Positions 5,312 to 58,981 of a DNA stretch of 64,000 nucleotides are shown here, one piece after another. The stretch spans positions 791,551 through 855,550 of the forward strand of contig CP064998.1 of assembly GCA_016700035.1 (NCBI GenBank). Direction: 5' to 3'. The position numbers and the translations under genes were made by a program. The notes beneath the pieces were generated by a model, which made no database searches, was not told the DNA's origin, and was given only the letters and a program-made list of their open reading frames with translations. Within the stretch, counting starts at the first letter, position 1. Every line of letters starts with the position of its first letter. The DNA is from a bacterium (GTDB lineage Bacteria; Patescibacteriota; Saccharimonadia; CAILAD01; GCA-016700035).

Positions 5312-6364
5312 CTATTCCTCCATATTTAAGGAAATTTGTTGATCTGAGTTTAAATTTGTATCTGGTGGGGTTAAGCCTAAATGCCTATACCCTTTCTCGC
5401 TCACCATCCGTCCGCGTGAAGTTCGCCTCAAAAGACCCTGCTGAATAAGATATGGCTCAACCACATCTTCGATAGTTTGTCGTTCTTCCGAAAGTGCTGC
5501 AGCCAAAGCTTCCACTCCAGCTGGACCACCATTATAGTGATCAATTAAAGTTTGTAAGACTCGACGATCGGCGCTATCCAGACCGAGGGCGTCAACCTCT
5601 AATAGGGCAAAGGTTGCATCCAGCACATCTCTATTAACTACAGCATCATTATGTACTTCGGCATAATCACGAATTCGGCGGATCAATCTATTTGCAATAC
5701 GTGGCGTTAATCTTGAACGAGCAGCTAACTCAACCAAGGCATCATCTTCCATGCGGATTTTCATCAAACGAGCGGTACGGGATAAAATTCTTGCTATCTC
5801 GTCGGGAGAATAAAACTCTAGGCGCTGAACTATCCCAAATCTATCTCTTAACGGCCCCGATAACGCCCCAAACCGAGTAGTTGCACCAATGATGGTAATT
5901 GGCGCCAACTCTAGCCGTAGCGACTGCGCTGATGGTCCCTTGCCCAACATAATATCAATCACATAATCCTCCATCGCCGGATATAAAATTTCTTCTACAA
6001 TTCTACTTAGACGATGAATTTCATCAATAAACAACACATCCCCAGCATTGAGATTTGTTAATAAGCTCGCCAGATCTCCAGCTCGCTCAATGGCTGGACC
6101 AGAGGTAATCTTTAGCTGGCCACCCAACTCGCTTGCAATAATGTGGGCTAGGGTTGTCTTACCTAGCCCTGGTGGTCCATACAAAAGCACATGGTCTAGC
6201 GCATCGCCACGTTTTTTTGATGCCGCTATCGCCAACCGCAGTGCGTCAATTGCTTGGCGCTGACCGATATATTCATCAAAATTAGCCGGACGAAGTGACT
6301 CCTCAAACTGAGTCTCCTCACTACTGGCGTCTGGTCGCACTAAATCATCCTGTCGCTCTATCAT
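5312..6364 (-). CDS. ruvB: Holliday junction branch-migration helicase RuvB
   Basis: Walker [16 protein letters not shown] and AAA+ RuvB-like N, M and C domains. It overlaps ruvA by 4 nt. Confidence 0.92.
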
Positions 6365-6918
6365 GAACCAATCTCCCGCAAAGCTTGTCGAACCCGCTCA
6401 CCCGTATCGAGGTCAGTGGCAACCCCGCTTAGGGCTGCTTGAGCTTGATCAGCCCGATAACCTAGCTGAACCAAGGCTTGCAAAGCTGGGTCGGCAGTTT
6501 TTGTAACTGGTTGATCACTAGCGACTAGCTTGCCTCTCAGTTCTAGAATTATCCGCTGAGCTGTCTTACGCCCCACTCCACTTACCTGACTGAGCCGAGT
6601 AGTCTCTTCAGAATCAATAATGGTCATCAAAGTTTCGCCATCGTATAATGAAACAATTGCATGGGCCATCTTAGCACCAACTCCGTTAACACTCACTAAC
6701 TTGCGGTACAATTGCCTCTCACTTTCAACCCGAAAGCCGTACAGATCATAGCTATCCTCACGGATATTTTCAGATATATAAAATCCAACTTTCGCACCAA
6801 TCTCCAATTCGGCAACATCGCGCACTGGTACGATCAGCTCATAACCAACGCCATGCACGTTCAATATAATGCGATCATAATCACGGGTGGCAACTACCCC
6901 CTCCAAGTGCGCTATCAT
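6361..6918 (-). CDS. ruvA: Holliday junction DNA-binding protein RuvA
   Basis: The conserved start MIAHLEGVV lies 50 codons inside the longer ORF that extends to 7068. I judge that upstream extension spurious (Cys/Trp-rich). The C-terminal half contains HhH motifs. Confidence 0.85.
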
Positions 6919-7020
6919 ATACTCATTATTACACATTCTGCGGCAAAAGGTCTGTACTCCACCCTCCCAAACACGTAATATACAAATAAGATAGCACCTT
7001 ACGTAGCACCAAGGGGGAAG

Positions 7021-7308
7021 ATGAGCATCACCGATGATCATCGAGCAGCCGTACTTGTAGCCAAGCATTCAGGAGATCCCGACTACTGGCGTGAGTTCGC
7101 CAACTGTCTGGGAGCAAATCCAGATCTTTTCTTTCCAGATCGTGGTGTCTCAACTAAAGAGGCCAAGCAGACCTGTCAAGACTGCATAGTGCGCGAAGAT
7201 TGCCTGGCATTCGCCCTAGCTAATTGTGAACGATTCGGTATCTGGGGCGGACTATCGGAACGCCAGCGCCGTCGTATGCGCCGCCAGAACTCTCCTCGCC
7301 CACGCTAA
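7021..7308 (+). CDS. WhiB-like (Wbl) 4Fe-4S transcription factor
   Basis: Cys pattern C-x22-C-x2-C-x5-C (CLGANPD...CQDCIVREDC), then GIWGGLSERQRRRMRRQ, the G[VI]WGG turn plus a basic tail. Local GC is slightly above its surroundings. Confidence 0.75.
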   Translation: MSITDDHRAAVLVAKHSGDPDYWREFANCLGANPDLFFPDRGVSTKEAKQTCQDCIVREDCLAFALANCERFGIWGGLSERQRRRMRRQNSPRPR

Positions 7309-7353
7309 ACCAATTAAGGTCTGCCTTGGCTAAAATTTCCACACCGCGAAGTA

Positions 7354-7833
7354 TTAGCGTGGTGTTTTTATATGGCCAGTATGCATCAGGGCAATAGCTA
7401 GGGCATCAGCTGCATCATCAGGCTTTGGAATAGCACTGAGTTTAAGACGGACTTTAACCATTTCTTGTACCTGCCTTTTAGTAGCCTTACCATAACCGGC
7501 TATACCCTGCTTAACTTGCAACGGCGTGTACTCAAAAATTGCTACACCAGCCTGCTGCAATACCAGCAAAACCACACCACGCGCCTCACCAACCGTCATG
7601 GCAGTCGTAACATTGGTTGAAAAAAATAATTTCTCAACTGCCACCTCTTGTGGTTGATGTTTTTGCATAAGACCCTGCAAATCATCATATAAAACCGCAA
7701 GCCTCTGGGCATGGGTTAAATCCTTGTGAGTTGTAATTACGCCACAGTCTACTAGTTTATTTATACCTTTTTCATGCCGTATCACACCAAAGCCAGTTGT
7801 TGCGATACCTGGATCAATACCAAGAATAATCAT
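7354..7833 (-). CDS. ruvC: Crossover junction endodeoxyribonuclease RuvC
   Basis: N-terminal MIILGIDPGIATTGFGVI (RNase H-like fold). 159 aa. Confidence 0.9.
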   Translation of the reverse strand: MIILGIDPGIATTGFGVIRHEKGINKLVDCGVITTHKDLTHAQRLAVLYDDLQGLMQKHQPQEVAVEKLFFSTNVTTAMTVGEARGVVLLVLQQAGVAIFEYTPLQVKQGIAGYGKATKRQVQEMVKVRLKLSAIPKPDDAADALAIALMHTGHIKTPR

Positions 7834-7909: not shown

Positions 7910-8173
7910 CTAGCCAAACCAAGGTGCATGATTTGGCATGGGTGGTAGAGGCAAAGGACGATCTGCGTAGATCTCTAGTAATTGCCCTTGCTTCAGCACA
8001 AGGTACGCACCCGCATGATCGTCATCAGATGCTGAAATCTCCAGCACCACAACCACATCGGGCTGCTTGGCTGGATTGGGCTTGATCAGCCTGGCTCGCA
8101 CCGTTCGAGTATTACCAGCCTCATCCTGATAGCGCACGCGTCGACGTTCACCAAACGGAATGTCAGTCATCAA
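7910..8173 (-). CDS. Hypothetical protein
   Basis: 87-aa ORF that overlaps the start of the next gene. I recognise no family. Confidence 0.3.
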   Translation of the reverse strand: MMTDIPFGERRRVRYQDEAGNTRTVRARLIKPNPAKQPDVVVVLEISASDDDHAGAYLVLKQGQLLEIYADRPLPLPPMPNHAPWFG

Positions 8174-8864
8174 ACATCAGCTCCTCGTAACCACCGGCGT
8201 ATTTAGGGTTCTTCTCCCGAAACTCCGCCCCATGACCAATATTGGTCACGATTGGGCGATTTTCAGCGCAGAAAGGGCAGTTTTTAGACGAATAGTTTTT
8301 CACATCCAATTGCCAAGCCACATGCAGCACGGGCACGTCGAGCGAGCGAACTGTTACGGCACGTGTTCGATTCACCATACAAGCCACACCAACCACCTCT
8401 CCACCAGCTTGCCGTACAGCCTTAATGGTTTTCTTGATTGATTTTGCTGTCGTCATCACATCTTCAACTACTAGCACTCGCTTGCCACGTACAGTGCTCG
8501 CAAAACGTGAGCGCTCAAGGGCAAACTGCTTACCGTCCTTATCGGCCCACACCGCCTGCACATAAATGCCTTGAGCGATCAAGCGCTGCGACAGACCACC
8601 AATCAGATATACCCCACCGGTAGCCGGCCCCACCACAACCTCTGGATGACGCTCCGGACTAGAACTACTGAAAAAACAGTCTTTCCAAAAGTCATAGAAG
8701 TAGGCCATCCGTGAGGCGTCTGGGAAGATACGATCAGCATTAAGATAAATCTCAGCGTGATCGCCCGAGCTCAAGACCAAATGACTCCCCTCAATCACAG
8801 CTTTTGTCGCTGTAAAATGATTAACCGCCCACTGCTCGCTTCGAGCAATCGCTGGCAATTTCAT
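8163..8864 (-). CDS. Phosphoribosyltransferase (orotate PRTase-like) with C-terminal Cys-containing extension
   Basis: PRPP-binding motif RVLVVEDVMTTAKSIKKTIKAVRQAGGEVVGVACMVNR. An extra C-terminal ~40 aa carries CPFC. Confidence 0.6.
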   Translation of the reverse strand: MKLPAIARSEQWAVNHFTATKAVIEGSHLVLSSGDHAEIYLNADRIFPDASRMAYFYDFWKDCFFSSSSPERHPEVVVGPATGGVYLIGGLSQRLIAQGIYVQAVWADKDGKQFALERSRFASTVRGKRVLVVEDVMTTAKSIKKTIKAVRQAGGEVVGVACMVNRTRAVTVRSLDVPVLHVAWQLDVKNYSSKNCPFCAENRPIVTNIGHGAEFREKNPKYAGGYEELMFDD

Positions 8865-12783: not shown

Positions 12784-13689
12784 TTACGCGCCAATTTTAT
12801 CGCGACGACGCTTGCCTTTGGCGCGCTCCACCACAAAATCTATCATTTTAGAGGCAATGTCCTCACCCGTCTGAGCCTCAATCCCTTCCAAACCTGGTGA
12901 GCTATTTACCTCTAGCACTAATGGCCCACGCCGAGACCGAATAAGATCTACTCCAGCAATCGAAAGACCCAGTGTTGAGGCAGCCTTGAGGGCAACATTT
13001 TGCTCTTTTTTAGAGAGCTCAACTGGCGTTGACTCGCCACCGCGGTGCAAATTTGACCGAAACTCACCTTCCTGGCCCTTGCGCATCATCGCACCAACAA
13101 TCTTATCGCCCACTACAATCACTCGGATATCTGCACCATCAGCTTCTTCAATAAATTCTTGCAAAATAAAGTTGGCATTGATCGAGTTAAAGGCTTCAAT
13201 TACCGACTTAGCAGCTTTTTTAGTTTCTGCTAGCACCACACCTTTACCTTGCGTAGATTCTAAAAGCTTTACTACCACTGGCGCACCACCAACCAGCTCT
13301 AGAAGCTCTGCGGCATCCGATGTTTGAGAAGCAAAAACAGTTTTTGGAATACCCACACCAGCGCGAGCCAAGAGTTGCATGGAACGCAACTTATCACGCG
13401 AGCGCACCAGGGCCAGTGAGCTCGTGGCGGTATAGGCTCGCATCATCTCAAACTGGCGCAATACAGCCGCTCCATAGTTGGTGTAACGGGCGGCAATACG
13501 TGGAACCACCGCCTCCACCTCATCTACCGAGCGACCCTCCCAGTGTACCGAAGGGTTGCGACTCTCAATTGCCATGTAGGCCTTGGTGTAATCAACCACC
13601 ACCGGTGTATGACCCTTGGCATTTGCGGCCTCCACTAAGCGACGGGTTGAGTAATTTTTTCTACCGGCTGATAAAATAGCAATTTTCAT
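12784..13689 (-). CDS. rimK: RimK-family alpha-L-glutamate ligase (ATP-grasp)
   Basis: N-terminus MKIAILS. ATP-grasp motifs VVVKLLESTQGKGVVL and DLIRS..GPLVLEVNSSPGLEGIE. Confidence 0.85.
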   Translation of the reverse strand: MKIAILSAGRKNYSTRRLVEAANAKGHTPVVVDYTKAYMAIESRNPSVHWEGRSVDEVEAVVPRIAARYTNYGAAVLRQFEMMRAYTATSSLALVRSRDKLRSMQLLARAGVGIPKTVFASQTSDAAELLELVGGAPVVVKLLESTQGKGVVLAETKKAAKSVIEAFNSINANFILQEFIEEADGADIRVIVVGDKIVGAMMRKGQEGEFRSNLHRGGESTPVELSKKEQNVALKAASTLGLSIAGVDLIRSRRGPLVLEVNSSPGLEGIEAQTGEDIASKMIDFVVERAKGKRRRDKIGA

Positions 13690-15170
13690 GATTTGGTAAT
13701 CTCCCCTCGGGATAATTCAACATTAACTAAATAATTTCCACGCAGTAATTTGCGTCCCAGAAGCATCGGTACCTTCTGACTCTGGCGATTTGTCAGAGTA
13801 AACTGAGTTTGATGATCCCGGCCTTGGATACGTACAATTGTACGTATCTTATAGCGATCTTGCCACTGTCCAGTTGAACTTTTTACCTGCACCGTCTCAA
13901 AATCACGACTCACGCACTCCACAAAATCCTCCGAATGGGTTCGGCCATCCACAAAATGCGGTACACGAAAGTGTAGCTCATCACCCCGCTTGGTGTGCTT
14001 AATATGAATACCCTCAGCGTGTAAGGCACCACTATATGCGCCAGTATCTGTCTTAGCAGATACACCCGTAATACCAAATTCTGGCAGGCCAACCACCTCA
14101 ATTCTACCAATAACTTTTTTAGGCAGACTAGCTGATGCCTGGCGATGATAGCGCTTTGCCACCGTTCGGCGCAAATAGTTAACAAAACCAGGAATATTTT
14201 CTTCAATATAGGCACCGGTTACAATTTGTGAACCCTGATTGACCTCCAAGATTGCCTTGCGCCCGGTATTCTTATCAAGAATTACATCCACACCGGCCAC
14301 TGATAAATTCATCACCTGCGCAGAACGAGTAGCTAATTCTAGCATTCTAGACGACACTTTGTTATGCGCAACAAGCTGGGCTGATCCGCCAGCTGAGGTG
14401 TTATTTAGATGACTTTTACCATCACCCACACGATGAATCACCATACCCGGCTCGCCACCATAAACTTGCACACGCCAATCGCCATCATTAGCAACATAAT
14501 CTTGAATAAGCCAATCTACTGCACTACCTTGGGTTAGAGTACGCCCCGCTTGTGCAGTCTTGATTAAGTGATTATCCCGTCCTTTTTGCCCGATTGTAGA
14601 CTTAATAATTGCTGGATAACTCACCCACTCACTCTTCAGTACAGCTTGAATATGTTTAGCTGGCGCATAAACCGTTCGCACCACCGGTATCCGCTCCGAC
14701 CACAACTTCAGCGTAGTTACTAGCTTATTGGCAGCCCCCTTCTGCTCAACCGCCTCATCGATAAACGGCACACCCTTAGCGCGTAAATAAATTGCCAGTG
14801 CGGCAGCTACATCCGGCATACTCTCCCAGGCCTTAAAATAAACAAAGTCATAGCTAGCTGGATCTTTTTTGGTTTGCCAATCGAATACCAATGCCTTACG
14901 TTTATCAACCACAAAGACCAGATCTTCAAGTGCCATCACCTCGGCTTCAGCGAAATCAAAATTACCATATTTTTTTAAACGCGTAATAAAACCAGCGCCA
15001 CGAGTTGATGTTAGGCTAGCTTCCCGCGTAAAGATAAACAAGATCTTCGGATTATTGAGGGCTGGCTTAACCACGTTGAGCTCCTTCTTCTGCTGCACGT
15101 TGCATGTACTCAAGTAGCACCTGCATTTTTTGTTCGGGGTCAGCACCCAACTGAATGGCTGGGGCCTCAT
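13686..15170 (-). CDS. ATP-grasp ligase fused to C-terminal RimK-associated (retropepsin-like) protease domain
   Basis: The central ATP-grasp region has VAGVDVILDKNTGRKAILEVNQGSQI. The C-terminal ~150 aa (IGRIEVVGLPEFGITGVSAKTDTGAYSGALHA...VNVEL) matches the RimK-associated protease domain family. The 5' end overlaps the upstream gene by 104 nt, so the true start is uncertain. Confidence 0.6.
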   Translation of the reverse strand: MRPQPFSWVLTPNKKCRCYLSTCNVQQKKELNVVKPALNNPKILFIFTREASLTSTRGAGFITRLKKYGNFDFAEAEVMALEDLVFVVDKRKALVFDWQTKKDPASYDFVYFKAWESMPDVAAALAIYLRAKGVPFIDEAVEQKGAANKLVTTLKLWSERIPVVRTVYAPAKHIQAVLKSEWVSYPAIIKSTIGQKGRDNHLIKTAQAGRTLTQGSAVDWLIQDYVANDGDWRVQVYGGEPGMVIHRVGDGKSHLNNTSAGGSAQLVAHNKVSSRMLELATRSAQVMNLSVAGVDVILDKNTGRKAILEVNQGSQIVTGAYIEENIPGFVNYLRRTVAKRYHRQASASLPKKVIGRIEVVGLPEFGITGVSAKTDTGAYSGALHAEGIHIKHTKRGDELHFRVPHFVDGRTHSEDFVECVSRDFETVQVKSSTGQWQDRYKIRTIVRIQGRDHQTQFTLTNRQSQKVPMLLGRKLLRGNYLVNVELSRGEITKS

Positions 15171-16008
15171 TAATTTCTAAAATAATATGCTCACCGGTAT
15201 TTTTATTAATCAATAAATCTAACCCACAAAACTGCTCTCGACCAACCAAGCGAGCCGCCTTCAGGCTATCCTCGCGTTGCTTCGGGGTTAGAACAGATGC
15301 GTCAAAAATACTAGCTTCGGCATTTTGCGAGGTATTATTTAAATGCGTATCTTCAGCAATCCTAGCTCGCTTCATCACCAGCTTGATCTCTCCACCTAAT
15401 ATAAGTACTCGATAATCAAACTCATTGGCAATAAATGGCTGTGCAATGAATGTCACGCTAGAGTGTTCAGCGAGTTTGGCTTTGAGTTCAGCGTAGCTGT
15501 GGATTAAGAAATTGTTATTACCACCAAAATCCTGAATACTTTTTAGTATAAAAGGATACGAATATGGTGGGTTTTTCCTAAAAAGCTTGCGCAACTCACG
15601 GGCCGAAGTTGAAATACCATCCGGCAGTGGCAAATTTTGGTTTACCATGAGGGCCTGCTGACCAATTTTAGACAGTGGTGTGAATCGCCCAACTTCTGGA
15701 GTAAAATATGAGATTTGACAATAATCTAGATATTTAGCTGCTACCAAAGCCTGCTGCTGACGCTTGTGAAATAGCTCAAAATACACCAAATCAAACTCCG
15801 CCAAATCCATACCAGTCATTGATTCAATAATTTTTAAGCTATTGTTTTTAAAGCAAATCTGTAAATCTTTCAAGGAACCTTGAAAAAGTTGCATGCCAAA
15901 GTCACCCGCTCGTTCGGCTAACGGGTTAAATAATAGCTTGTAGTAGCCAGTTTTGTGGCTCCTAAAGCTATAAAGAATTAGTACTTTATAGGGCTTTTTT
16001 GTAGTCAT
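15067..16008 (-). CDS. RimK-like ATP-grasp ligase, third paralog
   Basis: GLDLLINKNTGEHIILEINEAPAIQ and DYRVLILGGE are ATP-grasp B and C subdomain motifs. 313 aa. Confidence 0.65.
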   Translation of the reverse strand: MTTKKPYKVLILYSFRSHKTGYYKLLFNPLAERAGDFGMQLFQGSLKDLQICFKNNSLKIIESMTGMDLAEFDLVYFELFHKRQQQALVAAKYLDYCQISYFTPEVGRFTPLSKIGQQALMVNQNLPLPDGISTSARELRKLFRKNPPYSYPFILKSIQDFGGNNNFLIHSYAELKAKLAEHSSVTFIAQPFIANEFDYRVLILGGEIKLVMKRARIAEDTHLNNTSQNAEASIFDASVLTPKQREDSLKAARLVGREQFCGLDLLINKNTGEHIILEINEAPAIQLGADPEQKMQVLLEYMQRAAEEGAQRG

Positions 16009-30463: not shown

Positions 30464-31798
30464 CTAAGCCACTTTTACGGCCAACGTGTGGGCTGGCGCA
30501 TCTACCCCAGCTGGTGCAAAATGCCTACTCCGAGCAAGTCTTGGTACTAGGGCCACCTCATTTTTTTCCGTCACCACAATTGGCCACGTCAAACGCTCAC
30601 TTCGGGGAACTTTTCTATCAACAAAAATGTCTTGAATCTTCTTCGTGCCACGCATTCCAATGGGTGCTATTCTATCGCCCGACTGCCACCTACGCACATA
30701 ATAGGTATGCGGCCTAAGATAATGACTAGCAAGACAAGTTCCATCATCTACTTGCCCGTCCTGTAGTACCAGATTAAATTTACCAAACTGCAGTACTTTT
30801 CCAAATGGAAGCTGCTGAGTCTTATCCGATACGGAATATTCAGGTGTTGCCGAACGCAAGACGAACTTCACTCTATCATATTCTCGCGCCATCAGCAACC
30901 CTGGTAGAGCCTCCGAATAGCTCCCCGAACTAGCACTTGCCCACCAGGCCAGTGCCGAATCTAGATTACGCTGTGAAATCCGCCGGCCAGCAGTTAGTTG
31001 ACGCGCCATATACGAAAGTAAATTTAACTGGACTAATGGCGAAAGTCGTAAAAACTTCACTCGGTCAATCTCATAGCCGCCAGCAATCTTATCACCAATT
31101 TCGGCAAGTAAATGTCCTAGCTTCTGCTCAATTCGATCATTTATCGTCTCTAGATGGTCAATCCAATTAGATAGATTATTATGGTAGTGCGCATCTTGAG
31201 TTGGCGCAAAATGCATGAGCTCATGGCGAATTAGATTACGCGTGTAGGATCGATCATTATTGGTGGCATCTTCTCGCCACTGCAAATCACGCAATGCCGC
31301 ATAGGTAATTAAATCCCCTCGCCCAAAACCAATTAAAGGGCGCACCACAATATCATGCCTATTGCCGAGGCTCGTCAGGCCAACCCGATCGGCACCCCGA
31401 ATAGCATGCCAAGCCGTCGTCTCCAGCCTATCGTGCCGATGATGAGCGGTGACAATTTTATCCGCACCTGCCTCACGACGAACTTCATCTAACCAATTGT
31501 AGCGAGCCTGGCGCAAAACAGCCTCACTTTGGGGGGTTCTTGGTAAAACACCCAATAAATATTTATATCCGTACCGATCAGCCAATGCCCCCACAAAGCT
31601 AGCATCATCAGCCGATGCCTCACGCTGACCATGATCTAGGTGTGCAACAATTAATTGCCAATCCCATTTTTCTTGTAAGCGATGTAGTAAATCTAAAAGT
31701 GTAACCGAGTCACGCCCACCAGAAACCGCCACGATATATGTACCGTGCTCTGGCATAAGCGCTTGCCGTCTAAGGGTTTTTTCAAGCTGATGGAGCAT
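30464..31798 (-). CDS. tilS: tRNA(Ile)-lysidine synthetase TilS
   Basis: PP-loop VAVSGGRDS plus a C-terminal tRNA-binding domain. It sits next to ftsH, as in many genomes. Confidence 0.85.
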   Translation of the reverse strand: MLHQLEKTLRRQALMPEHGTYIVAVSGGRDSVTLLDLLHRLQEKWDWQLIVAHLDHGQREASADDASFVGALADRYGYKYLLGVLPRTPQSEAVLRQARYNWLDEVRREAGADKIVTAHHRHDRLETTAWHAIRGADRVGLTSLGNRHDIVVRPLIGFGRGDLITYAALRDLQWREDATNNDRSYTRNLIRHELMHFAPTQDAHYHNNLSNWIDHLETINDRIEQKLGHLLAEIGDKIAGGYEIDRVKFLRLSPLVQLNLLSYMARQLTAGRRISQRNLDSALAWWASASSGSYSEALPGLLMAREYDRVKFVLRSATPEYSVSDKTQQLPFGKVLQFGKFNLVLQDGQVDDGTCLASHYLRPHTYYVRRWQSGDRIAPIGMRGTKKIQDIFVDRKVPRSERLTWPIVVTEKNEVALVPRLARSRHFAPAGVDAPAHTLAVKVA

Positions 31799-34784: not shown

Positions 34785-34861
34785 TGGTGGCTGCGGGTGG
34801 ATTTGAACCACCGACCTCTGGCTTATGAGTCCATTGCTCTGACCAACTGAGCTACGCAGCC
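34785..34861 (-). tRNA. tRNA with CAU anticodon (elongator Met or lysidine-modified Ile2), CCA encoded
   Basis: The reverse complement gives acceptor GGCTGCG/CGCAGCC, D arm gctcagttggtcagagc, anticodon loop cuCAUaa and T arm ggtggttcaaatccacc. The anticodon stem has two A·G mismatches, so the identity is tentative. Confidence 0.7.
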
Positions 34862-35775: not shown

Positions 35776-35851
35776 TGGTAGCGGGGGCAGGATTCGAACC
35801 TGCGACCTTCGGGTTATGAGCCCGACGAGCTGCCAGCTGCTCCACCCCGCG
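35776..35851 (-). tRNA. Initiator tRNA-fMet (CAU)
   Basis: The reverse complement CGCGGGGTGGAGCAGCTGGCAGCTCGTCGGGCTCATAACCCGAAGGTCGCAGGTTCGAATCCTGCCCCCGCTACCA closely matches bacterial initiator tRNA. It has the 1:72 mismatch and three GC pairs in the anticodon stem. Confidence 0.85.
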
Positions 35852-40095: not shown

Positions 40096-40171
40096 GGGCC
40101 CGTAGCTCAGTGGTTAGAGCAGTCGACTCATAATCGATTGGCCGCTGGTTCAAATCCAGCCGGGCCCACCA
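40096..40171 (+). tRNA. tRNA with CAU anticodon (Met elongator or Ile2), CCA encoded
   Basis: Acceptor GGGCCCG/CGGGCCC, anticodon stem-loop gtcga-cuCAUaa-tcgat, T arm gctggttcaaatccagc. Confidence 0.85.
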
Positions 40172-41012: not shown

Positions 41013-42248
41013 TCACCCATTACTTTTTATTGCCGAAGGCTTGATAGACATCTCTTTTGTCCGCTCTGGCCTCAAAATATCCATACCTCTACCGCCAATT
41101 AATGCTACCCCCAAAATGAAAGCCGTCAAACTAATAACTGCACCAAGTACCGGCACTAAGCCGACTACCGCTAAAGTTACAAACCCAATTATCGTAGCAA
41201 CTAGCTCAGTAGTGTAGCTGGCTGTCTTTGTATTTTTATTATTTGACTGAAGCTTTTCCATAATTAGCCTACCAATAAAGTTAGCGCTAGCTGTAGGAGC
41301 CATCACAAGTACTAATATAAATAGTAGCGCCAACACGGCAGCTAATGGTATGCCGATAATCGTAAATAGCATCAAGATTAACACTATTGGTACAATCACC
41401 ACCAATGCCACAGCCTTAAGGCAATCATAAAATAGTCTCCTATTAAGACCAGTAGCGGTACTGAAAAATAGTTTTGGCGCAACATAAAGCAATACGCTGG
41501 CAATCAATATATTAGCAATTAGCCAATACACCAAATCTACCAACTGAATCATGATACGCTCTTGAGTTGAAGTAGCACGATCTGGCTCAGCCCGCTTAAT
41601 AGAACCCTGAATTGAACGATCGTTCTCGATAGCAACCTGATTTTGTGAACTATAGTTAAGATTTCCTCCAATCTCACTCGATCCCTGAACGGTGATTTTC
41701 TCACCCGCAACCGTAACATCTCCACCAGTCTTGCCCGCTATTACCACCTCGGTGCCAGCTACATAAATGCTTTGATCCACGTCACCGCGTATTGAAAGTT
41801 CGCCACCAGCAGCAAACAAATTCTGAATACTAGCTTGCTCGCCCAGCTGAACAGTGCTACCGGCAAGAAAAACTGAAGCTGAATCCTGAGAGCTAACCTC
41901 CACATCAGCACCAGCAACATGAATATTGCCGTCAACCCTCCCCCTAACGACCACCTTTTCTGCCACCGCATAAACACTCCCCTTAACCGAGCCATCAATC
42001 TCAACTTCACCACCGGCGACTATCACATCACCCTGCACAGTCCCCTTAATCAATATTTTGTCAGCAGCTCTAATATAGATACCATTTATTGTTTGGTCGG
42101 CTGATAGTTCAGCCAAAGTATCGGCAGCTCGCGCAATGCCAACCGAAAATAGTACCACAAATAAAGCAATAATTAAGCTAATTAGGATTTTTGGGGATTT
42201 CATATTTTTATTAAACGCCGAAAATACATTAAACACAAGACTTGACAC
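41013..42248 (-). CDS. Membrane protein with N-terminal signal, bactofilin-like beta-helical repeat region and C-terminal polytopic domain
   Basis: Repeats of the form (V/I)xGxVxGDVxVAGGEVEIDGSVKG, then about 5 TM helices. Confidence 0.5.
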   Translation of the reverse strand: MSSLVFNVFSAFNKNMKSPKILISLIIALFVVLFSVGIARAADTLAELSADQTINGIYIRAADKILIKGTVQGDVIVAGGEVEIDGSVKGSVYAVAEKVVVRGRVDGNIHVAGADVEVSSQDSASVFLAGSTVQLGEQASIQNLFAAGGELSIRGDVDQSIYVAGTEVVIAGKTGGDVTVAGEKITVQGSSEIGGNLNYSSQNQVAIENDRSIQGSIKRAEPDRATSTQERIMIQLVDLVYWLIANILIASVLLYVAPKLFFSTATGLNRRLFYDCLKAVALVVIVPIVLILMLFTIIGIPLAAVLALLFILVLVMAPTASANFIGRLIMEKLQSNNKNTKTASYTTELVATIIGFVTLAVVGLVPVLGAVISLTAFILGVALIGGRGMDILRPERTKEMSIKPSAIKSNG

Positions 42249-42304: not shown

Positions 42305-42937
42305 ATGATCCGCAAACCACTTACTAAAAAACAAAAGCGAACACTAGATTATGTTTCGTCTTTTATCGAGCAACACGGCTACTCACCAAGCTACCGTGAG
42401 ATTGCTAATGGACTAAAGCTTAATTCTGTCGCTACTGTCGCCCAGCATATCGACTCGCTTGTCGCAAAGGGCCTTCTAACTAAAGGAAATAACTCTGCTC
42501 GTTCCCTCCTCCCAGTTGGCGAAGTTGAGGCCGCTACTATTACCGACTCTGGTATGCGCCTGCCTATTTTAGGACTCATCGCTGCTGGTTCGCCAATTGA
42601 AACCGTCTCTGGCCATCCAGATACTCTGGAAGTTCCACCTTTCATGGTTGGAAAACGCAATAGCTACGTCTTGCAAGTTAAGGGGCAGTCTATGATTAAC
42701 GACGGCATCCACAGCGGAGACTATGTAGTGGTGCAAGAAAAAGAAGTGCCCTCTAACGGTGAAGTCGTAGTGGCACTAGTTAATGGCTCGGAGGCTACCC
42801 TCAAGCGCTACTATAAAGAAGCTGGTCGAGTACGTCTGCAGCCCGCCAACGATACTATGGACCCCATTTATATAACACCAGATATGGATCTCCAAATTCA
42901 AGGAGTAGTAATTGGTCTAATCCGTAAGTATAACTAG
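42305..42937 (+). CDS. lexA: LexA repressor (S24 peptidase)
   Basis: N-terminal wHTH LTKKQKRTLDYV...GYSPSYREIA, an Ala-Gly cleavage site, and Ser/Lys dyad motifs GQSMINDGIHSGDYVVV...LKR. Confidence 0.9.
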   Translation: MIRKPLTKKQKRTLDYVSSFIEQHGYSPSYREIANGLKLNSVATVAQHIDSLVAKGLLTKGNNSARSLLPVGEVEAATITDSGMRLPILGLIAAGSPIETVSGHPDTLEVPPFMVGKRNSYVLQVKGQSMINDGIHSGDYVVVQEKEVPSNGEVVVALVNGSEATLKRYYKEAGRVRLQPANDTMDPIYITPDMDLQIQGVVIGLIRKYN

Positions 42938-45876: not shown

Positions 45877-47112
45877 CTAACCAACCCAGTAGCCATTAGA
45901 GAACATCGTGAGCATCGCACCGAGCCCAACTGCCGATAAGACAAAATACAATGTTCGCACCCACTCAGCTTGTTTATCCAACCACATCGCAATGAGGATA
46001 AAAACCGGGAATACCGCTAAAATGTATCGACTATCTGAAACAAAATTGCCGGTTAATACCAATGTTAGTGCGGTTAATCCGGAATATACCACTAAAGATA
46101 TTGGTAACTTCTTTCTCCAGCCAACCCAAGCACTCCACGCAATTGCTAGCCAAGCTATAAAAAAATGCAGCCTGGTAAATAGCTGACTGAACCAATCGTC
46201 CAACCAAGCCGTAGACCCCACGAGCCCGATCATGCCAGTTGTTTCTTTATATATGGTGCGAAAAATATTTGCCTCAAAGCCCATATAGGGCCAATACTTA
46301 TCATAGATACTTGCAAAGTAAACCCACGGATACACATTGGTTTTACTATAGAGCCACAACCAATACGTACCAGTTCCAGCAAGAGCTACCGGGATAGATA
46401 CAATCTGCCAATCAATCTTACGCCACGACCAATTTTTATCAGATAAATACTGCGCGGCAATAACTATGGCAAATATAATCCCCACACCTCGCGTACCGCC
46501 AGCTAATGCCGCCAGAATCCCAGAAGCCAAATATTTTTTGCGCAGCAATAGCAATAACGACCACGTAGCCAACGCAACAAAAACTGCTTCAGTATAGAAA
46601 GCAATAAAAAAATGTGCACTTGGAAAGGCCAGCCAGGCAAGTATGGTCAGGATTGCTACTTTACGCTTTCTAGTAACTTCCATTGTCAGTAAATACAAAC
46701 CTTGCGATGCAATAAGTAATGCTATGGCATTAATGAACTGAGCTGCTACTACTATGTTGATGCCAATTTTATGCAGTAGGAAAATTATCAAAGGAAATAC
46801 GGGGTAAAATACAGTATTAAAACTAGATAGGTCATAGCCTTTTTGAATAATAGCCAAATAACTTACCCCATCCCACTTAATAGCACCAATCAATCCAGTT
46901 ATAATGGGTGGATTATAGGTCGTATTCCCAGGTTGGTGAATTACAGATACAACAAAAAACCGTAAAATAACCATACTAATAATCCACACCAGCGGGATGA
47001 CTATGGCTGGATATTTTTTAATAAAAGTAGAAAGCTTACTGTTAATTTTTACTAGTTGTATTCTTAATCTTTTTAGCCTGGCCATTAAGATTATCCTTAT
47101 TTGACACAACAA
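45877..47112 (-). CDS. GT-C-fold polytopic membrane glycosyltransferase (PMT/ArnT-like), putative
   Basis: About 11 TM helices with aromatic-rich loops. The start is uncertain, with candidates at 47112, 47085 and 46974. It sits in the glycan locus. Confidence 0.45.
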   Translation of the reverse strand: MLCQIRIILMARLKRLRIQLVKINSKLSTFIKKYPAIVIPLVWIISMVILRFFVVSVIHQPGNTTYNPPIITGLIGAIKWDGVSYLAIIQKGYDLSSFNTVFYPVFPLIIFLLHKIGINIVVAAQFINAIALLIASQGLYLLTMEVTRKRKVAILTILAWLAFPSAHFFIAFYTEAVFVALATWSLLLLLRKKYLASGILAALAGGTRGVGIIFAIVIAAQYLSDKNWSWRKIDWQIVSIPVALAGTGTYWLWLYSKTNVYPWVYFASIYDKYWPYMGFEANIFRTIYKETTGMIGLVGSTAWLDDWFSQLFTRLHFFIAWLAIAWSAWVGWRKKLPISLVVYSGLTALTLVLTGNFVSDSRYILAVFPVFILIAMWLDKQAEWVRTLYFVLSAVGLGAMLTMFSNGYWVG

Positions 47113-48421
47113 CCCCCATCAGCAGCCCAATCGCCACCCAAATATGCATGATGTAGAGCGTGGAAAAAGTTTGTGCTTGGATTAATTGTGAAAAGATATA
47201 AGTAAGCAATCCTGCCACTAAATAAGTATCGCGACTGTTTGGCCTACGTAAGTACATTATTGACTGTCGCACCAATAGAATAATCAATGTCAATAATAAA
47301 ATTAATCCCACAAGTCCAGTCTCTAGTAAGATCTCTAGTGGTAAATTATTGACTATTGCCCACCCACCTACGGCATTAGGCCCTTGAATATAGGGGCCAA
47401 ATTGCCCTGGTCCAATTCCAAACAGTAAAACATTCATGTCCGATGTAGACAGACGAATTGCCTTTAGGCGAAAACGACTCCTATCATCACCAGATCCTTC
47501 CACTCCAGAATTTGTAAGCTGTTGCACATAAGCGCCTGCAGCTTTCTTGCCTTCGGCGGGGCTATCACTTATTAATGGAGTGCGATTAAAGAGCTGGATG
47601 CAGGATAGTGCTAGTATAAATCCAATAGCAATAGCAAGCGCAACTCTTACCAATCTGCCCGATACAAGCTTTCTCCTGTAGATAGCAGTGCAAACAAAAG
47701 TTAAGATAAGTGCTCCAATTAAACCATAAATTGCCCCCCTCGATAGAGTGAGGCTTAAAGTGGCAATAAATAATGTTAAGACTACCCCACTATATCTGAT
47801 TATTTTTTTTCTATATAAAACTTCATTTATCAATAATAGTGTTGGTAACAACAAATATGAGCCAAAATATAACGGCTCTAGCCCTGTAGACTGTATACGC
47901 GCAAAGCCAAATACCCTCCAGCTATACCTTTCTGAAAGGCCAGTCCAAGAAGAGTTGAGCCCAAAAAAATCACCAAAATATTGATATATTCCAAATACAG
48001 AAGTTATGATTGCGGCAATATATAAAGTAATTATTACCTTTCTTCTAGATAATTCACCAATGTTTTTCCATAAATAAAAGACACTAATCCCCACACCAAT
48101 AGCAAATACCGTATACAGAACTACTTGAATAGCCCTGATTTGATTAATTGATATAGGTATTATTAGGCTAACCCATAATATAAATAAGCCTAATAATACT
48201 ATTTCAATGGGTAGCCAACCAGATTTCCTGGACTTAATAAGAATCCACAGTCCTCGCAAGATTAATAATCCACCAATAAATAAACTAGGTCTCAAAGTTA
48301 TAAAGGATACATCTATAGATGGTATTCGCTCAAAAGGTAGCACTAACACCATCCCCTGCAAAAGAGTGAGATCTGGATTGCTACGAATGTATTTTAAAAT
48401 GTTATGTATCTTTTCTCTCAT
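47042..48421 (-). CDS. O-antigen ligase/polymerase family membrane protein (Wzy_C-like)
   Basis: About 11 TM helices with a periplasmic-loop motif LSLTLSRGAIYGL. In the glycan locus. Confidence 0.55.
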   Translation of the reverse strand: MREKIHNILKYIRSNPDLTLLQGMVLVLPFERIPSIDVSFITLRPSLFIGGLLILRGLWILIKSRKSGWLPIEIVLLGLFILWVSLIIPISINQIRAIQVVLYTVFAIGVGISVFYLWKNIGELSRRKVIITLYIAAIITSVFGIYQYFGDFFGLNSSWTGLSERYSWRVFGFARIQSTGLEPLYFGSYLLLPTLLLINEVLYRKKIIRYSGVVLTLFIATLSLTLSRGAIYGLIGALILTFVCTAIYRRKLVSGRLVRVALAIAIGFILALSCIQLFNRTPLISDSPAEGKKAAGAYVQQLTNSGVEGSGDDRSRFRLKAIRLSTSDMNVLLFGIGPGQFGPYIQGPNAVGGWAIVNNLPLEILLETGLVGLILLLTLIILLVRQSIMYLRRPNSRDTYLVAGLLTYIFSQLIQAQTFSTLYIMHIWVAIGLLMGVVVSNKDNLNGQAKKIKNTTSKN

Positions 48422-49250
48422 TTGTTCCAGCTAAAATTACATTTTTAATATAGAGTGGTGCACGAAATATCCGTAATACTGCCGCAGCAACTGCTCCATG
48501 CCACTTTTTGAAGTATTTATTTTGTGATTCATAGTAGTATTTTTTTCTACTGGAGGACGAAGAAATACTTCTTCCCCATAAATGTATTATGTGGGCAGAA
48601 GGAAAAAACCTAATTTTATAACCAGCCGCAGCAACTGCTTTACACAAGTCTGTATCTTCATAATACATGAAGTAGCGCCCATCAAAACCATCTATCTGCT
48701 GAAAAACCTTCTTAGAGATCACAAGTGCCGCCGCAACCGCAACATCTACATCCTGATCTACAGCCGGCATAGCATTTTTTTTACTCATTAATAACCTACT
48801 AAAAAATCTGAATGGTTTTAACACTATAAGTCTGTAAAGCGAAGGAAAGTCGTCTATCTGTGTTGGCTGTATAGATCCTTGCTCATCGGTGAGTAGTGGT
48901 AATGCCGCAGCATAATCTCGATTACTACTAAGAAAGTCTAGTAATTTATGTAGATTATTTTCTTTAGGCACGAGTGTGTCTGTGTTGAGGAGCCAAATAT
49001 ATTCCCCTTCTGCTAGACCCACCCCTTTATTGTTCCCCTGACCAAAGCCGTAGTTTTTTCTAAGCTCAATAATCTTAGCATCTTTACATACTCGCTTAAT
49101 TCTTTTTTTGTTAAGCTGCTTGGATGCATTATCAATAACTAATACTTCATAGTCATCGAGCTTTAAACTTAAATTCTTTTTTAGGCTTTTTAGGCTATCT
49201 ATCAATAAATCTTCTGTGTTGTAGTTAACATAAATAATTGATAATCGCAT
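48402..49250 (-). CDS. Family 2 glycosyltransferase
   Basis: LSIIYVNYN...VIDNAS...LLNTDT (GT-A DxD region). Confidence 0.8.
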   Translation of the reverse strand: MRLSIIYVNYNTEDLLIDSLKSLKKNLSLKLDDYEVLVIDNASKQLNKKRIKRVCKDAKIIELRKNYGFGQGNNKGVGLAEGEYIWLLNTDTLVPKENNLHKLLDFLSSNRDYAAALPLLTDEQGSIQPTQIDDFPSLYRLIVLKPFRFFSRLLMSKKNAMPAVDQDVDVAVAAALVISKKVFQQIDGFDGRYFMYYEDTDLCKAVAAAGYKIRFFPSAHIIHLWGRSISSSSSRKKYYYESQNKYFKKWHGAVAAAVLRIFRAPLYIKNVILAGTNERKDT

Positions 49251-50224
49251 TAATTATCCCCTCTCCCAAATGGCCACTTTGGAGACATGACACTGTAGAT
49301 ATCTAGCCAGTTAACCTTTCTCTCGGATTGGATGTGTATTCTTTCTCTGCGGATGCGAGGTACCGCTCTAACAAATTCGAGGTATGCCAAAAATACTTCT
49401 CTAAATGCCAAAGATTTGATGGCAGCTACAATCATATAAATATTAGCTATGCAGAATTTAGCCACTGTGCGATATATTATTCCAGATGGAGTATTTTTCC
49501 AATATACATATTGAGCATTTCGTATTACATAGCGGCGAGAAAAATTTCTCCCTCGCTTACTCGAAGATACACCCAGACCATGTGTAATTAAGGCCTTGGG
49601 AGCTAATCCGATGCTGTAGCCTTTGAGACGAGCTCGATAGCAATAATCTACATCCTCGTAATACATAAAAAATAGACTATCAAAACCTCCAATTTCGCGC
49701 CATACTTTAGTCCGATAAAGAGAATAGCCTCCCGATCCAGAAAATATTTCCTGGCTAGATTGTTTTTTTACAGAAGCAACACTCTTTCCTCTCATTCTTG
49801 GAGAAGCAATTCCCCAACAGCTCATATCATCACCCAATGCGTCAATTGTCTTTCCGTCAGGCAATATAGATGCAGATGTCACAACGGCCAATCTATCATC
49901 GGCATCAGCAATCTTTACAAGCTGTTTTAACCAATCTTCATGAGCAATAGCATCTGTATTCAGTAACGCAAAATACTCTGTATGAACATCCCTAATAGCA
50001 ATGTTAACTGCTTCAGCAAACCCATGGTTTTTACTCTCAGCTATCACATGCACATCTGGGTAGTTTTTGGCGATAAAATTAATGGAGTCATCTTGAGAGC
50101 TATTGTCTACAACTATTATCTCAAAGTTCTTAAACGTCTGTACTTTTAAAGAATCCAGAGCAGCTGAAATAATCTCCACCCCATTCCAATTAACCAAAAC
50201 CACAGTAACTTTAGATTTAACCAT
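49250..50224 (-). CDS. Family 2 glycosyltransferase
   Basis: VTVVLVNWNG...VVDNSSQD...LLNTD. Confidence 0.8.
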   Translation of the reverse strand: MVKSKVTVVLVNWNGVEIISAALDSLKVQTFKNFEIIVVDNSSQDDSINFIAKNYPDVHVIAESKNHGFAEAVNIAIRDVHTEYFALLNTDAIAHEDWLKQLVKIADADDRLAVVTSASILPDGKTIDALGDDMSCWGIASPRMRGKSVASVKKQSSQEIFSGSGGYSLYRTKVWREIGGFDSLFFMYYEDVDYCYRARLKGYSIGLAPKALITHGLGVSSSKRGRNFSRRYVIRNAQYVYWKNTPSGIIYRTVAKFCIANIYMIVAAIKSLAFREVFLAYLEFVRAVPRIRRERIHIQSERKVNWLDIYSVMSPKWPFGRGDN

Positions 50225-51377
50225 CTATTAGACTCCTTAACACAGTCAGATAGGTCTTAGCCGAAGCTTGCCAGCTCCAATGAGCCCTAGCTTCCTTACT
50301 CATTTTACTTGGACTCCACTCAGTTTGAATTGCTTCATCAATAGCACGGGCTAGAGGGTCTACTTCTCTTTCGCATAATAATCCGTTTACACCTTGATTG
50401 ACGGTCTCCAGATACCCTCCCTCATTTACTGCTACAGTCGGTGTTCCGCATGCAGCTGATTCTATAGGGGTAAAGCCAAACGGCTCTTTCGTGGCCACAG
50501 CAAGCGTTACGATACTCTCCCTATATATTTTTGCTAGCTGCCCATCTGTAACGCCTTGTCTAAATTCAATTATCATGCCAAGCTTTTTTGAAAGTACCTC
50601 TAATTCTTGCTTGTATCTTGTATCATAATTTTCGTAAACAAAAACTAGCCTTACTCCATGCATAGCTTTAACTTTCGATAAAGCCCTGATCGCTAAATCC
50701 TGACCCTTAGCAGGATGTAGTGTACCAACTACAACGATCTGGTTTTTTTTGGTTGACTTAGCGTAAAAGAATCTTTCTTGATCTATACCCAAGTAACACA
50801 CCTCAGCATCAATACCATAAGCCTTAGTAATATTTCCTTGCGCATACTTTGAATTACAAAGTGCAGCCGAACACTTACGAGCATTTGCCACATCTAGGTC
50901 TTTCAGTATTTTTTGCCGAATAATCCACGGTGCTTGAAGAGCCTTGGGAATCATCTCTTTTGATTTATTATAAAAATCTTGTTCAAAGCTTAAACGCCTG
51001 GGCTCCTGGATAAAATATAGGTTCTTAGTTTTTAGATATTGCATCAAAAATGGTGTTTGCGCTATTGCACAGTGATGGACAAATACTGCATCATACTTTT
51101 TACTGTCAATCTCATCGGCAATATTTTTCTGTATACGACGTAACTTTGCGAACCGCGTTACTATTTCTATAAACATATCTAATCTTGAAGGATCATAGCT
51201 AAAATCATAGCTTTTATATTTTTTTACATATGGTCGAAAATTGTAACGAGATGCATCATTAGCTGGAAAAAGTTGGTACAAATCGTAGTCAACTTCTTCA
51301 TAAGAGTGCTTAACTAGTTCGTGAAGTGCCCTTATGGCTCCTCCATCTGGTAGATTGTGATAAATAGCTACACGCAT
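50217..51377 (-). CDS. Family 4 (GT-B) glycosyltransferase
   Basis: The C-terminal motif [20 protein letters not shown] is the EX7E region. Confidence 0.75.
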
Positions 51378-51423
51378 ATATACTGTATATTATACCCAAT
51401 GTGCAGATAACGAAGGAGGATTT

Positions 51424-52383
51424 GTGGCAAAAAAAGCACTTATAACAGGAATTACCGGTCAAGACGGTTCATATTTAGCCGAATTACTTCTAGATAAAGG
51501 CTATGAGGTGCACGGTATTATGCGCCGAAACAGTACTTTTACTACTGGTCGGATTGAACATATCTTTGATGATATCCAAATGCACTATGGTGATTTAGCA
51601 GACTCCAGCTCGCTCCAGCATATCATCGCCAATATTCAGCCGGATGAAGTTTATAATCTAGCCGCCCAGAGCCATGTAAAAGTTTCTTTTGATGTACCGG
51701 AATATACCGCCGATGTCACCGGCACTGGCACCTTGCGACTATTAGAAGCTATCCGTACTTCCGCACCACAAGCCAAATTTTATCAAGCTAGCTCCAGCGA
51801 GATGTTTGGCAAAGTTTTGGAAGTGCCACAAACCGAAAAGACGCCCTTCTACCCTCGCTCACCCTACGGTGCTGCTAAGGTCTATTCTTACTGGATCACC
51901 AAAAATTACCGCGAGAGTTATGATATGTTTGCCTGCAACGGTATTTTATTCAATCACGAAAGTCCGCGCCGTGGCGAAACATTTGTAACCCGTAAAATTA
52001 CTCGAGCGGTGGCCGCCATTAAAGCCGGCAAGCAAGATAAGCTCTTCCTCGGTAATCTGGACGCTAAACGCGACTGGGGCTTTGCTGGCGATTATGTAGA
52101 AGCTATGTGGCTTATGCTACAGGCCGATAAGCCAGATGACTATGTGGTGGCAACAAATGAAACGCACTCCGTAAAAGAGTTCTGTCAGATCGCCTTTAAT
52201 CACGTAGGTCTGGACTGGGAAAAGTACGTGGAAGTCAGCGAGAAATACTTCCGCCCGGCTGAAGTCGACCTGCTCATCGGTGACCCGGCCCATGCCAAAA
52301 AACAGCTCAAATGGGAACCAAAAGTAAGTTTTGAAGAGCTCGTGAAGATGATGGTTGATGCCGACTTAACTGAACTCAGCTGA
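51424..52383 (+). CDS. gmd: GDP-mannose 4,6-dehydratase
   Basis: [19 protein letters not shown], the YxxxK catalytic motif, and an overall GMD pattern. Confidence 0.9.
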
Positions 52384-52527
52384 TATTATAGGTTTCAACA
52401 ATTCTCTCTATAATAATATTTACCCCATAAGGATATGGGGTAAATATTATATACTCTACAGATTCATTGAGGGCATATTTACTTTATCTCTCTTTATACT
52501 AAAGTATAGACATACATAGTTTTTAAC

Positions 52528-53819: not shown

Positions 53820-53880
53820 ACCAGTACTCTAGATAGATTTATATTATTTAATTTAATTAGTAGAGATATCATATATTGCA

Positions 53881-58250: not shown

Positions 58251-58268
58251 ATAATACCTCTTAAGATT

Positions 58269-58970: not shown

Positions 58971-58981
58971 TAGTCACACCT

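Follow-up and report, generated by a model that had tools for sequence, protein, structure and literature searches.

The 64,000-nucleotide stretch analyzed here, hereafter the window, comprises positions 791,551 to 855,550 of contig CP064998.1 (assembly GCA_016700035.1) and carries, between ruvC and ruvA, a gene for a WhiB-like (Wbl) protein, which we call wbl. We consider it probable that this gene encodes a functional [4Fe-4S] regulator of the WhiB/WhiB2 class that a lineage of Saccharibacteria acquired horizontally from an actinobacterium of high guanine-plus-cytosine (GC) content, most likely a Microthrixaceae-like one, and has kept since. According to reviews and a structural paper from 2026, Wbl proteins are found exclusively in Actinobacteria and actinophages (PMC6282962, PMC13013590), and a preliminary description of this DNA, made from the sequence alone, held the family to be restricted in this way; that statement agrees with the literature but does not hold here, where the host belongs to the Saccharibacteria/Patescibacteria. 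Our search for literature connecting WhiB or WhiA with Saccharibacteria, Patescibacteria, CPR (candidate phyla radiation) or TM7 found only papers on the actinobacterial host's own whiB. As a protein, the window's Wbl is unremarkable, and the GenBank record of the exact sequence (QQS26853.1) is already automatically annotated as one; what is new is its distribution and the evolutionary history behind it, and not its mechanism, which is ordinary.

The gene and its landmarks are as follows:

7021-7308, plus strand: wbl, ATG start, encoding a 95-residue Wbl protein of class II (WhiB/WhiB2) type
7105-7203, plus strand: codons of the [4Fe-4S] ligands C29 to C61, together with F37, F38 and the DNA-contact loop R41-K49, placed by alignment to solved Wbl structures
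7228-7251, plus strand: codons of the ERF triplet (E70-R71-F72) and the G-I-W-G-G turn (73-77), in which W75 is residue 4 of the aromatic patch
7255-7305, plus strand: codons of the Arg-rich C-terminal helix and tail (S79-R95)

Assignment of the protein to the Wbl family and, within it, to the WhiB/WhiB2 class is well supported by sequence comparison and structure prediction. It matches the Pfam family Whib (PF02467) from the first to the last of the 65 model positions, at 78.1 bits (cut-off 23.6; E 7.3e-22), and its translation gives the ligand spacing C29-x22-C52-x2-C55-x5-C61, the turn G73-I-W-G-G77, the basic C-terminus that follows it, SERQRRRMRRQNSPRPR, and the tail S79-ERQRRRMRRQNSPRPR. 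The complete signature of four spaced cysteines (C-x22-C-x2-C-x5-C), GIWGG turn and Arg-rich tail reported in the preliminary description is thereby confirmed, and C29, C52, C55 and C61 align exactly with the Fe-S ligands of solved Wbl structures. Across an 88-sequence Wbl alignment, C52, C55, C61, G73, G76 and G77 are invariant and C29, W23, F37, F38 and W75 are conserved at 90% or more, and a fifth cysteine, C69, is not kept in relatives. The top match of a sequence search of the PDB was Streptomyces venezuelae WhiB (8DY7/8DY9 chain H, E 1e-23), whereas other Wbl classes (WhiB1, WhiB4, WhiB7 and WhiB3) scored between 3e-12, the value for WhiB1, and 1e-7. An AlphaFold2 model computed from the 88 sequences (predicted local distance difference test score, 83) superposes on 8DY9_H with a root-mean-square deviation of 0.9 Å over 66 columns at 57% identity; in the fold search against the PDB the next 13 matches were all Wbl proteins, as was every one of the top 15, in a ranking that agrees with the sequence search.

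The residues with which Wbl proteins contact their partners are largely in place. The aromatic patch that docks these proteins on sigma region 4 (PMC13013590) corresponds by alignment to W23, F37, F38 and W75, the counterparts of W3, F17, F18 and W60 of WhiB1, and the ERF triplet before the turn is a feature of WhiB2, or class II, proteins (PMC6282962). The DNA-contact residues are described for Streptomyces WhiB, in which S75, R77 and R80 contact the DNA backbone (PMC10243135): the loop K37-K45 (KGGSTREAK) is matched by R41-K49 (RGVSTKEAK), and R67, S75, R77 and R80 by R71, S79, R81 and R84, with E78 replaced by Q82. From this homology we infer that the protein binds a [4Fe-4S] cluster and sigma region 4. 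Compared with Streptomyces WhiB, Mycobacterium WhiB2 and Corynebacterium WhcD, to which its core is about 57% identical, it shares the four cysteines, the W/F/F/W patch, the ERF triplet, the GIWGG turn, the DNA-contact loop and the Arg-rich C-terminus, but differs in residing in a Saccharibacterium, in its ruvC-ruvA context, in a lineage-specific tail and N-terminal 20 residues, and in faster non-synonymous change.

By the affinities of its LepA, the host is a Saccharibacterium (Patescibacteria/CPR) and not an actinobacterium, because the named best matches of that protein all belong to Patescibacteria or Saccharibacteria: 'Patescibacteria group bacterium' at 92% and 84% identity and 'Candidatus Saccharibacteria bacterium' at 86%, 63% and 62%, with no Actinobacteria among the named best matches. 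LepA identity is at least 79% inside the clade to which the window belongs and at most 65% outside it. Gene content agrees, as the type IV pilus genes (PilC, a pilin and PilMNO, with a PilB-like gene upstream), ComEC, a sortase and a window GC content of about 44% fit Saccharibacteria; the window also encodes YebC, an hrcA-grpE-dnaK-dnaJ cluster, LepA, MurJ, FtsH, TilS and LexA. Both lines of evidence place the contig outside Actinobacteria, a point on which the preliminary description had made its proposal of transfer depend.

Where epibiont and host DNA share samples and a gene exceeds its flanks in GC content, one might suspect a chimera formed with actinobacterial DNA during assembly or binning, or else a functionless gene in decay, but we give such an explanation a near-negligible chance of being correct. 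Index entries for the identical Wbl protein comprise 61 blocks on 46 contigs, of which the longest measures 916,044 bp, and in the 23 contigs that we read, which come from independent samples and sources and include the 916-kb contig, wbl has the same neighbors on both sides. Orthologous loci occur, moreover, in at least five diverged relatives, and the frame is intact, with every ligand present and a ratio of non-synonymous to synonymous substitution rates (dN/dS) of 0.18.

The gene is antisense to the ruv genes, separated by 102 bp from the divergent ruvA and by 45 bp from the convergent ruvC:

7354-7833, minus strand: ruvC (Pfam RuvC, E 1.9e-49; NCBIfam equivalog, 223 bits), convergent with wbl
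6361-6918, minus strand: ruvA, 185 residues (MIAHLEG...; TIGR00084, 169 bits), divergent from wbl
5312-6364, minus strand: ruvB (NCBIfam RuvB equivalog, 491 bits), overlapping the ruvA stop

We place the ruvA start at the ATG at 6918, where RuvA_N begins and with which the 185-residue gene calls in identical contigs agree; the 235-residue ruvA reading frame of a program-made list was rejected as over-extended beyond this start. The antisense Wbl gene between ruvC and ruvA-ruvB noted in the preliminary description accordingly stands, but the ruvC-ruvA order, there called universal, proves to be common but not so general. Among the 80 RuvC loci listed by a metagenome scan with generic patterns, whose best match was 61% identical, many, including most of those with ruvA next to ruvC, show a gap of about 80-160 bp, and others have larger gaps or no neighboring ruvA. 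The neighbors of wbl are housekeeping genes in every copy examined.

An origin by horizontal transfer from Actinobacteria is supported by the combination of nearest relatives that lie in actinobacterial synteny and a residual high-GC signature. As the preliminary description had observed of its immediate neighbors, wbl is GC-rich: its GC content (0.542, z = 2.7) ranks first among the 55 genes of the window and its GC content at third codon positions (GC3; 0.479, z = 2.0) ranks second, and 0.9% of 288-nucleotide segments reach its GC. At each Saccharibacteria locus examined, wbl stands above its flanking genes in both measures (loci other than the window are denoted by L numbers):

Window: wbl GC 0.54 and GC3 0.48; flanking genes GC 0.43-0.48 and GC3 0.34-0.41
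L059: wbl GC 0.59 and GC3 0.64; flanking genes GC 0.47-0.53 and GC3 0.43-0.52
L061: wbl GC 0.60-0.61 and GC3 0.68-0.79; flanking genes GC 0.52-0.55 and GC3 0.51-0.56

Such values fit a donor of high GC whose gene has since been partly ameliorated. The best non-self matches to the protein (P0002, P0022, P0011 and P0009) reach 75-78% identity across some 60 core residues, and several of the best such matches bear NCBI names of Microthrixaceae. These Microthrixaceae-like WhiB2 proteins are the closest sequences found for the window protein and are closer still, at 88-92%, to the L059 copy, but their genes lie in loci of 0.70 GC and 0.84-0.97 GC3, in the order Rv0959-like gene, whiB, 5-formyltetrahydrofolate (5-FTHF) cyclo-ligase, tatA, a second whiB of 85 residues and ppk. 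At the DNA level, the Saccharibacteria wbl genes are 71-79% identical to these donor-like genes. Because wbl lies between ruvC and ruvA, and its Acidimicrobiia orthologues between the Rv0959-like gene and 5-FTHF ligase/tatA, it is a xenologue and not a positional orthologue of Acidimicrobiia whiB2.

Broader searches point in the same direction. A scan of a genome collection with the Wbl protein returned 48 loci, nearly all from Acidimicrobiia or other Actinomycetota, together with one Saccharibacteria metagenome-assembled genome (MAG) that carries a different Wbl type; the window's own genome was not among the results. Searched exhaustively with HMMER, a set of 1.84 billion cluster representatives yielded 36,976 Wbl representatives. 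The best of these are 61-69% identical, and wherever members of the top clusters are named, they are Acidimicrobiales or Actinomycetota. From these affinities the donor was most likely cellular and Acidimicrobiia/Microthrixaceae-like rather than a phage. A co-occurrence network of wastewater plants links Ca. Microthrix with three genera of Saccharimonadia (PMC10943839), which fits transfer from host to epibiont without proving it.

Arrival on a phage or another mobile element, and not directly from cellular DNA, has some precedent to recommend it, as 821 GenBank phage records carry a relative of the gene, WhiB2-type genes are reported to be rich in phages (PMC13013590), and the phages of Microthrix and Saccharibacteria are so sparsely sampled that absence from databases is weak evidence. 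Yet the closest phage copy is 64% identical over 58 residues and the closest copy on an IMG/VR viral contig 52%, both below the 75-78% of the cellular Acidimicrobiia proteins, and no integrase or phage gene flanks wbl, the closest tRNA lies 4.5 kb off, and direct repeats at its flanks or a target-site duplication are absent, with only short repeats at chance level. WhiB2-type proteins of actinophages, such as gp39 of Mycobacterium phage Mendokysei and the TM4 WhiB, likewise stand outside the native cellular lineage, but with a core identity of at most 64% they are less similar than the Acidimicrobiia copies, and no phage context exists at the wbl locus. We hence regard a phage vector as distinctly unlikely; of the two sources proposed in the preliminary description, the actinobacterial one is borne out by synteny and GC and the phage one is not.

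The transfer is not recent. Among related loci fetched through the RuvC relatives of the window, five, whose RuvB proteins are 87-71% identical to the window's, carry Wbl genes in the same position and orientation:

L154: Wbl antisense between ruvC and ruvA; LepA of this genome 94% identical to the window's
L059: Wbl antisense between ruvC and ruvA; RuvB 87% identical to the window's
L057: Wbl antisense between ruvC and ruvA, on a 645-kb contig; LepA 89% identical to the window's
L121: Wbl antisense between ruvC and ruvA; RuvB 71% identical to the window's
L061: two tandem Wbl genes antisense between ruvC and ruvA; LepA 80% identical to the window's

Because Wbl genes occupy the same slot in all five, the insertion is an old, fixed feature common to one clade of Saccharibacteria and not a strain-level event. 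Of the 80 listed metagenomic RuvC loci, 79 have no Wbl gene between ruvC and ruvA, L121 being the sole carrier among the matches listed. Selection was estimated from L154 and L059, the least saturated pair:

wbl: dN 0.113, dS 0.615, dN/dS 0.18
ruvC: dN 0.018, dS 0.509, dN/dS 0.036
ruvA: dN 0.024, dS 0.458, dN/dS 0.053
ruvB: dN 0.005, dS 0.235, dN/dS 0.022

These values indicate that wbl is under purifying selection, several-fold weaker than that on the ruv genes.

The sequences around wbl include candidate signals for its own expression:

6919-7020, no strand: divergent ruvA-wbl intergenic region of 102 bp, with blocks that align in the window, L154, L059 and L057
7341-7370, plus strand: putative wbl terminator, a hairpin (8 bp, 9-nucleotide loop) followed by a U-run, from RNA folding (z-score -1.4), overlapping the last ruvC codons

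On the wbl side of the spacer, the same four loci keep a -10-like TAnTAT (TAATAT at 6976-6981), an AAGGTC(T)TG block some 17-18 nucleotides upstream of it, and, in the 5' untranslated region, an ACCTTAC block together with the strong Shine-Dalgarno sequence GGGGG at 7013-7017 ahead of the wbl start. A generic promoter and terminator scan called none of the conserved spacer sites, nor the hairpin at 7341-7370. On the ruvA side (6919-6950), all four loci also keep a TGnnATAAT that ends 6 nucleotides before the ruvA ATG, with no Shine-Dalgarno sequence; it resembles an extended -10 promoter, and we hypothesize that it would give rise to a leaderless ruvAB mRNA. At the other end of the gene, wbl (7300-7308) and ruvC (7354-7362) both finish, each on its own strand, in CCACGCTAA (Pro-Arg-stop), forming a perfect 9-nucleotide inverted repeat 45 nucleotides apart that may be a product of chance.

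We propose that the gene, having landed between ruvC and ruvA, would have gained its own promoter and terminator and been kept as the clade diversified. By homology, its four cysteines would carry a [4Fe-4S] cluster; the cluster face and the aromatic patch W23/F37/F38/W75 would dock at the His-Pro motif in region 4 of the primary sigma factor, and the loop R41-K49 and the Arg-rich C-terminus would touch DNA, without specificity, immediately upstream of the -35 element. Transcription from a set of promoters would then depend on the integrity of the cluster, which may report oxygen, nitric oxide (NO) or redox state. The RHPSRS motif occurs in the primary sigma factors of E. coli and B. subtilis too, and we have dropped sigma His516 as an argument for specificity to Actinobacteria. 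The protein's site of action is most likely the epibiont itself, where, by analogy with WhiB2 in Actinobacteria, genes of growth or division are possible targets.

A different target can be imagined in the host, on whose sigma-A and WhiA an epibiont Wbl might act after transfer into the host cell, manipulating its division. Cultivated Saccharibacteria are epibionts of Actinomycetota (PMC10943839), the core of the protein remains host-like down to the sigma-contact, DNA-contact and ERF residues, and the WhiB of mycobacteriophage TM4, which interferes with the host's WhiB2, offers a precedent (PMC6282962). The window protein, however, has neither a signal peptide nor a hydrophobic N-terminus, its gene has no linkage to secretion genes apart from the ordinary type IV pilus cluster, and an oxygen-labile Fe-S protein is unlikely secreted cargo. 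As a cytoplasmic regulator is the simpler reading and covers all of the data, we consider an exported mimic very unlikely.

Several observations weigh against the picture of a functional regulator acquired once from a Microthrixaceae-like donor and retained. Each Saccharibacteria copy is nearer to Microthrixaceae WhiB2 (88-92% for L059, 75% for the window and 69% for L121) than to the other Saccharibacteria copies (60-74% among themselves), and in a neighbor-joining tree of 127 Wbl core sequences (76 columns), which lacks resolution and supports neither monophyly nor its opposite, the Saccharibacteria copies form no clade (0 of 200 bootstraps). The genes in the L061 slot belong to a different Wbl paralogue type. 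A single ancient acquisition is argued from synteny alone, and the donor was assigned from best matches and gene context and not from a resolved phylogeny. The faster non-synonymous change of wbl relative to its neighbors could reflect relaxed constraint or a changed function, and the promoter and terminator that we assign to it from sequence are weak candidates. Finally, no sigma-70, whiA or suf gene was found in the window, in the 10 kb upstream or in any fetched Saccharibacteria locus; tblastn with queries from sigma regions 2 and 4 gave no match in the window and, across the fetched loci, only an Acidimicrobiales sigma factor in L046.

The pattern of identities is equally compatible with a slow-evolving donor and fast-evolving recipients, or with repeated replacement from host DNA. 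Under repeated acquisition or replacement, the slot would have been refilled more than once from host DNA, perhaps through ComEC-mediated uptake and recombination into the resident wbl, leaving independently derived copies. Besides the affinity of each copy for Microthrixaceae WhiB2 and the lack of monophyly, this account gains from the tail RRRIRRQRAL(T/A)RAYQQS of the L059 and L154 proteins, which almost equals the Microthrixaceae tail, from the L061 slot with its two genes of another paralogue type, one of them with a mosaic tail, and from a ComEC encoded only 2 kb from wbl. A slow donor with fast recipients, however, predicts the same distances, and by three-point comparisons the donor falls nearly on the node. 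All carriers have the insertion at one position and in one orientation, no copy is recent (71-79% DNA identity, with GC3 of 0.48-0.64 against 0.84-0.92 in donor-like genes), and the dS of wbl between L154 and L059 is similar to that of its neighbors, as evolution in place predicts. We judge repeated replacement unlikely, if with a real chance of being correct, and continue to favor acquisition from a Microthrixaceae-like actinobacterium followed by retention.

The tandem pair in L061, a remoter representative of the clade (L061:5552-5887 and L061:6036-6317, both on the minus strand) is closest, at 51-69% identity, to the 85-residue second whiB beside ppk in Microthrixaceae-like genomes, and its second gene has the C-terminal tail of the main WhiB2 type, which suggests, on sequence comparison, a mosaic or gene conversion. 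A Wbl of the second type is also encoded at L045:5977-6252 (plus strand), in a 'Candidatus Saccharibacteria' MAG from soil of the Salar de Ascotan, directly downstream of a umuD-like (Peptidase_S24) and umuC-like (IMS) pair and near histidine kinases, a context entirely unlike that of the window. Like the window gene, these are Wbl genes on Saccharibacteria-type contigs, and the L061 pair shares its ruvC-ruvA slot, but their products represent the other paralogue type, with 60-69% identity to that second whiB of Microthrixaceae-like genomes, and are 36-43% identical to the window protein. Judged by these affinities, Saccharibacteria hold at least two Wbl types, both related to those of Acidimicrobiia, and the history of the slot extends beyond one clean insertion. 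In L062, a Saccharibacterium outside the clade (LepA 63%, RuvB 65%), the ruvC-ruvA slot has no Wbl gene and holds instead a gene for a 438-residue Wzy_C (O-antigen ligase-like) protein at 5487-6803 on the plus strand, and the slot seems to accept insertions repeatedly.

Retention under selection suggests that a sigma-docking Fe-S regulator is portable into a very different, genome-reduced bacterium, and marks wbl as a candidate sensor of redox state or NO in organisms about whose regulation almost nothing is known. It also ties, at the level of a concrete gene, a wastewater clade of Saccharibacteria to Microthrixaceae-like Actinobacteria. Until now the association of Saccharimonadia with Ca. 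Microthrix, an organism of foaming and bulking, had only co-occurrence as its basis (PMC10943839). A bolder proposal, which we hold to be a long shot, is that the epibiont captured the WhiB2-type division regulator of its own host, perhaps refreshing it through competence, and uses it to couple its growth to the redox or NO cues by which host division is paced or, in the manner of TM4, to reach into septation that depends on the host's sigma-A and WhiA. Were this so, the affinity of captured regulators would name the hosts of uncultured Saccharibacteria, here Microthrixaceae.

Further features of the window stand apart from these questions. The phosphoribosyltransferase gene beside ruvC (8163-8864, minus strand) tops all genes of the window in GC3 (0.51), and the GC maximum of the window lies at 8-9 kb (0.52). 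Between yebC and this gene, L057, L059, L154 and L061 have an orotidine 5'-monophosphate (OMP) decarboxylase gene that the window does not; some contigs with the identical Wbl protein have a 195-residue gene of unknown function in its place. Three RimK-like ATP-grasp genes lie at 13686-15170, 12784-13689 and 15067-16008, all on the minus strand, one with a fused domain of a putative ATP-dependent zinc protease, a cluster that is unusual for so small a genome.

Three tRNA-Met (CAT) genes fall within 5.4 kb (34785-34861, 35776-35851 and 40096-40171) and presumably represent the initiator, the elongator and the precursor of tRNA-Ile2; TilS is encoded at 30464-31798. The LexA repressor gene (42305-42937, plus strand) is divergent from a gene for a 411-residue bactofilin-domain protein (41013-42248, minus strand), and LexA, as the regulator of the SOS response, could be a candidate controller of ruvAB. 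The region 47000-61000 is low in GC (0.34-0.40, against about 0.45 elsewhere) and holds a surface-polysaccharide cluster of atypical composition, with many genes for glycosyltransferases and with genes for Wzy_C, a GDP-mannose dehydratase, an epimerase and a Wzm/Wzt-type ATP-binding cassette (ABC) exporter.

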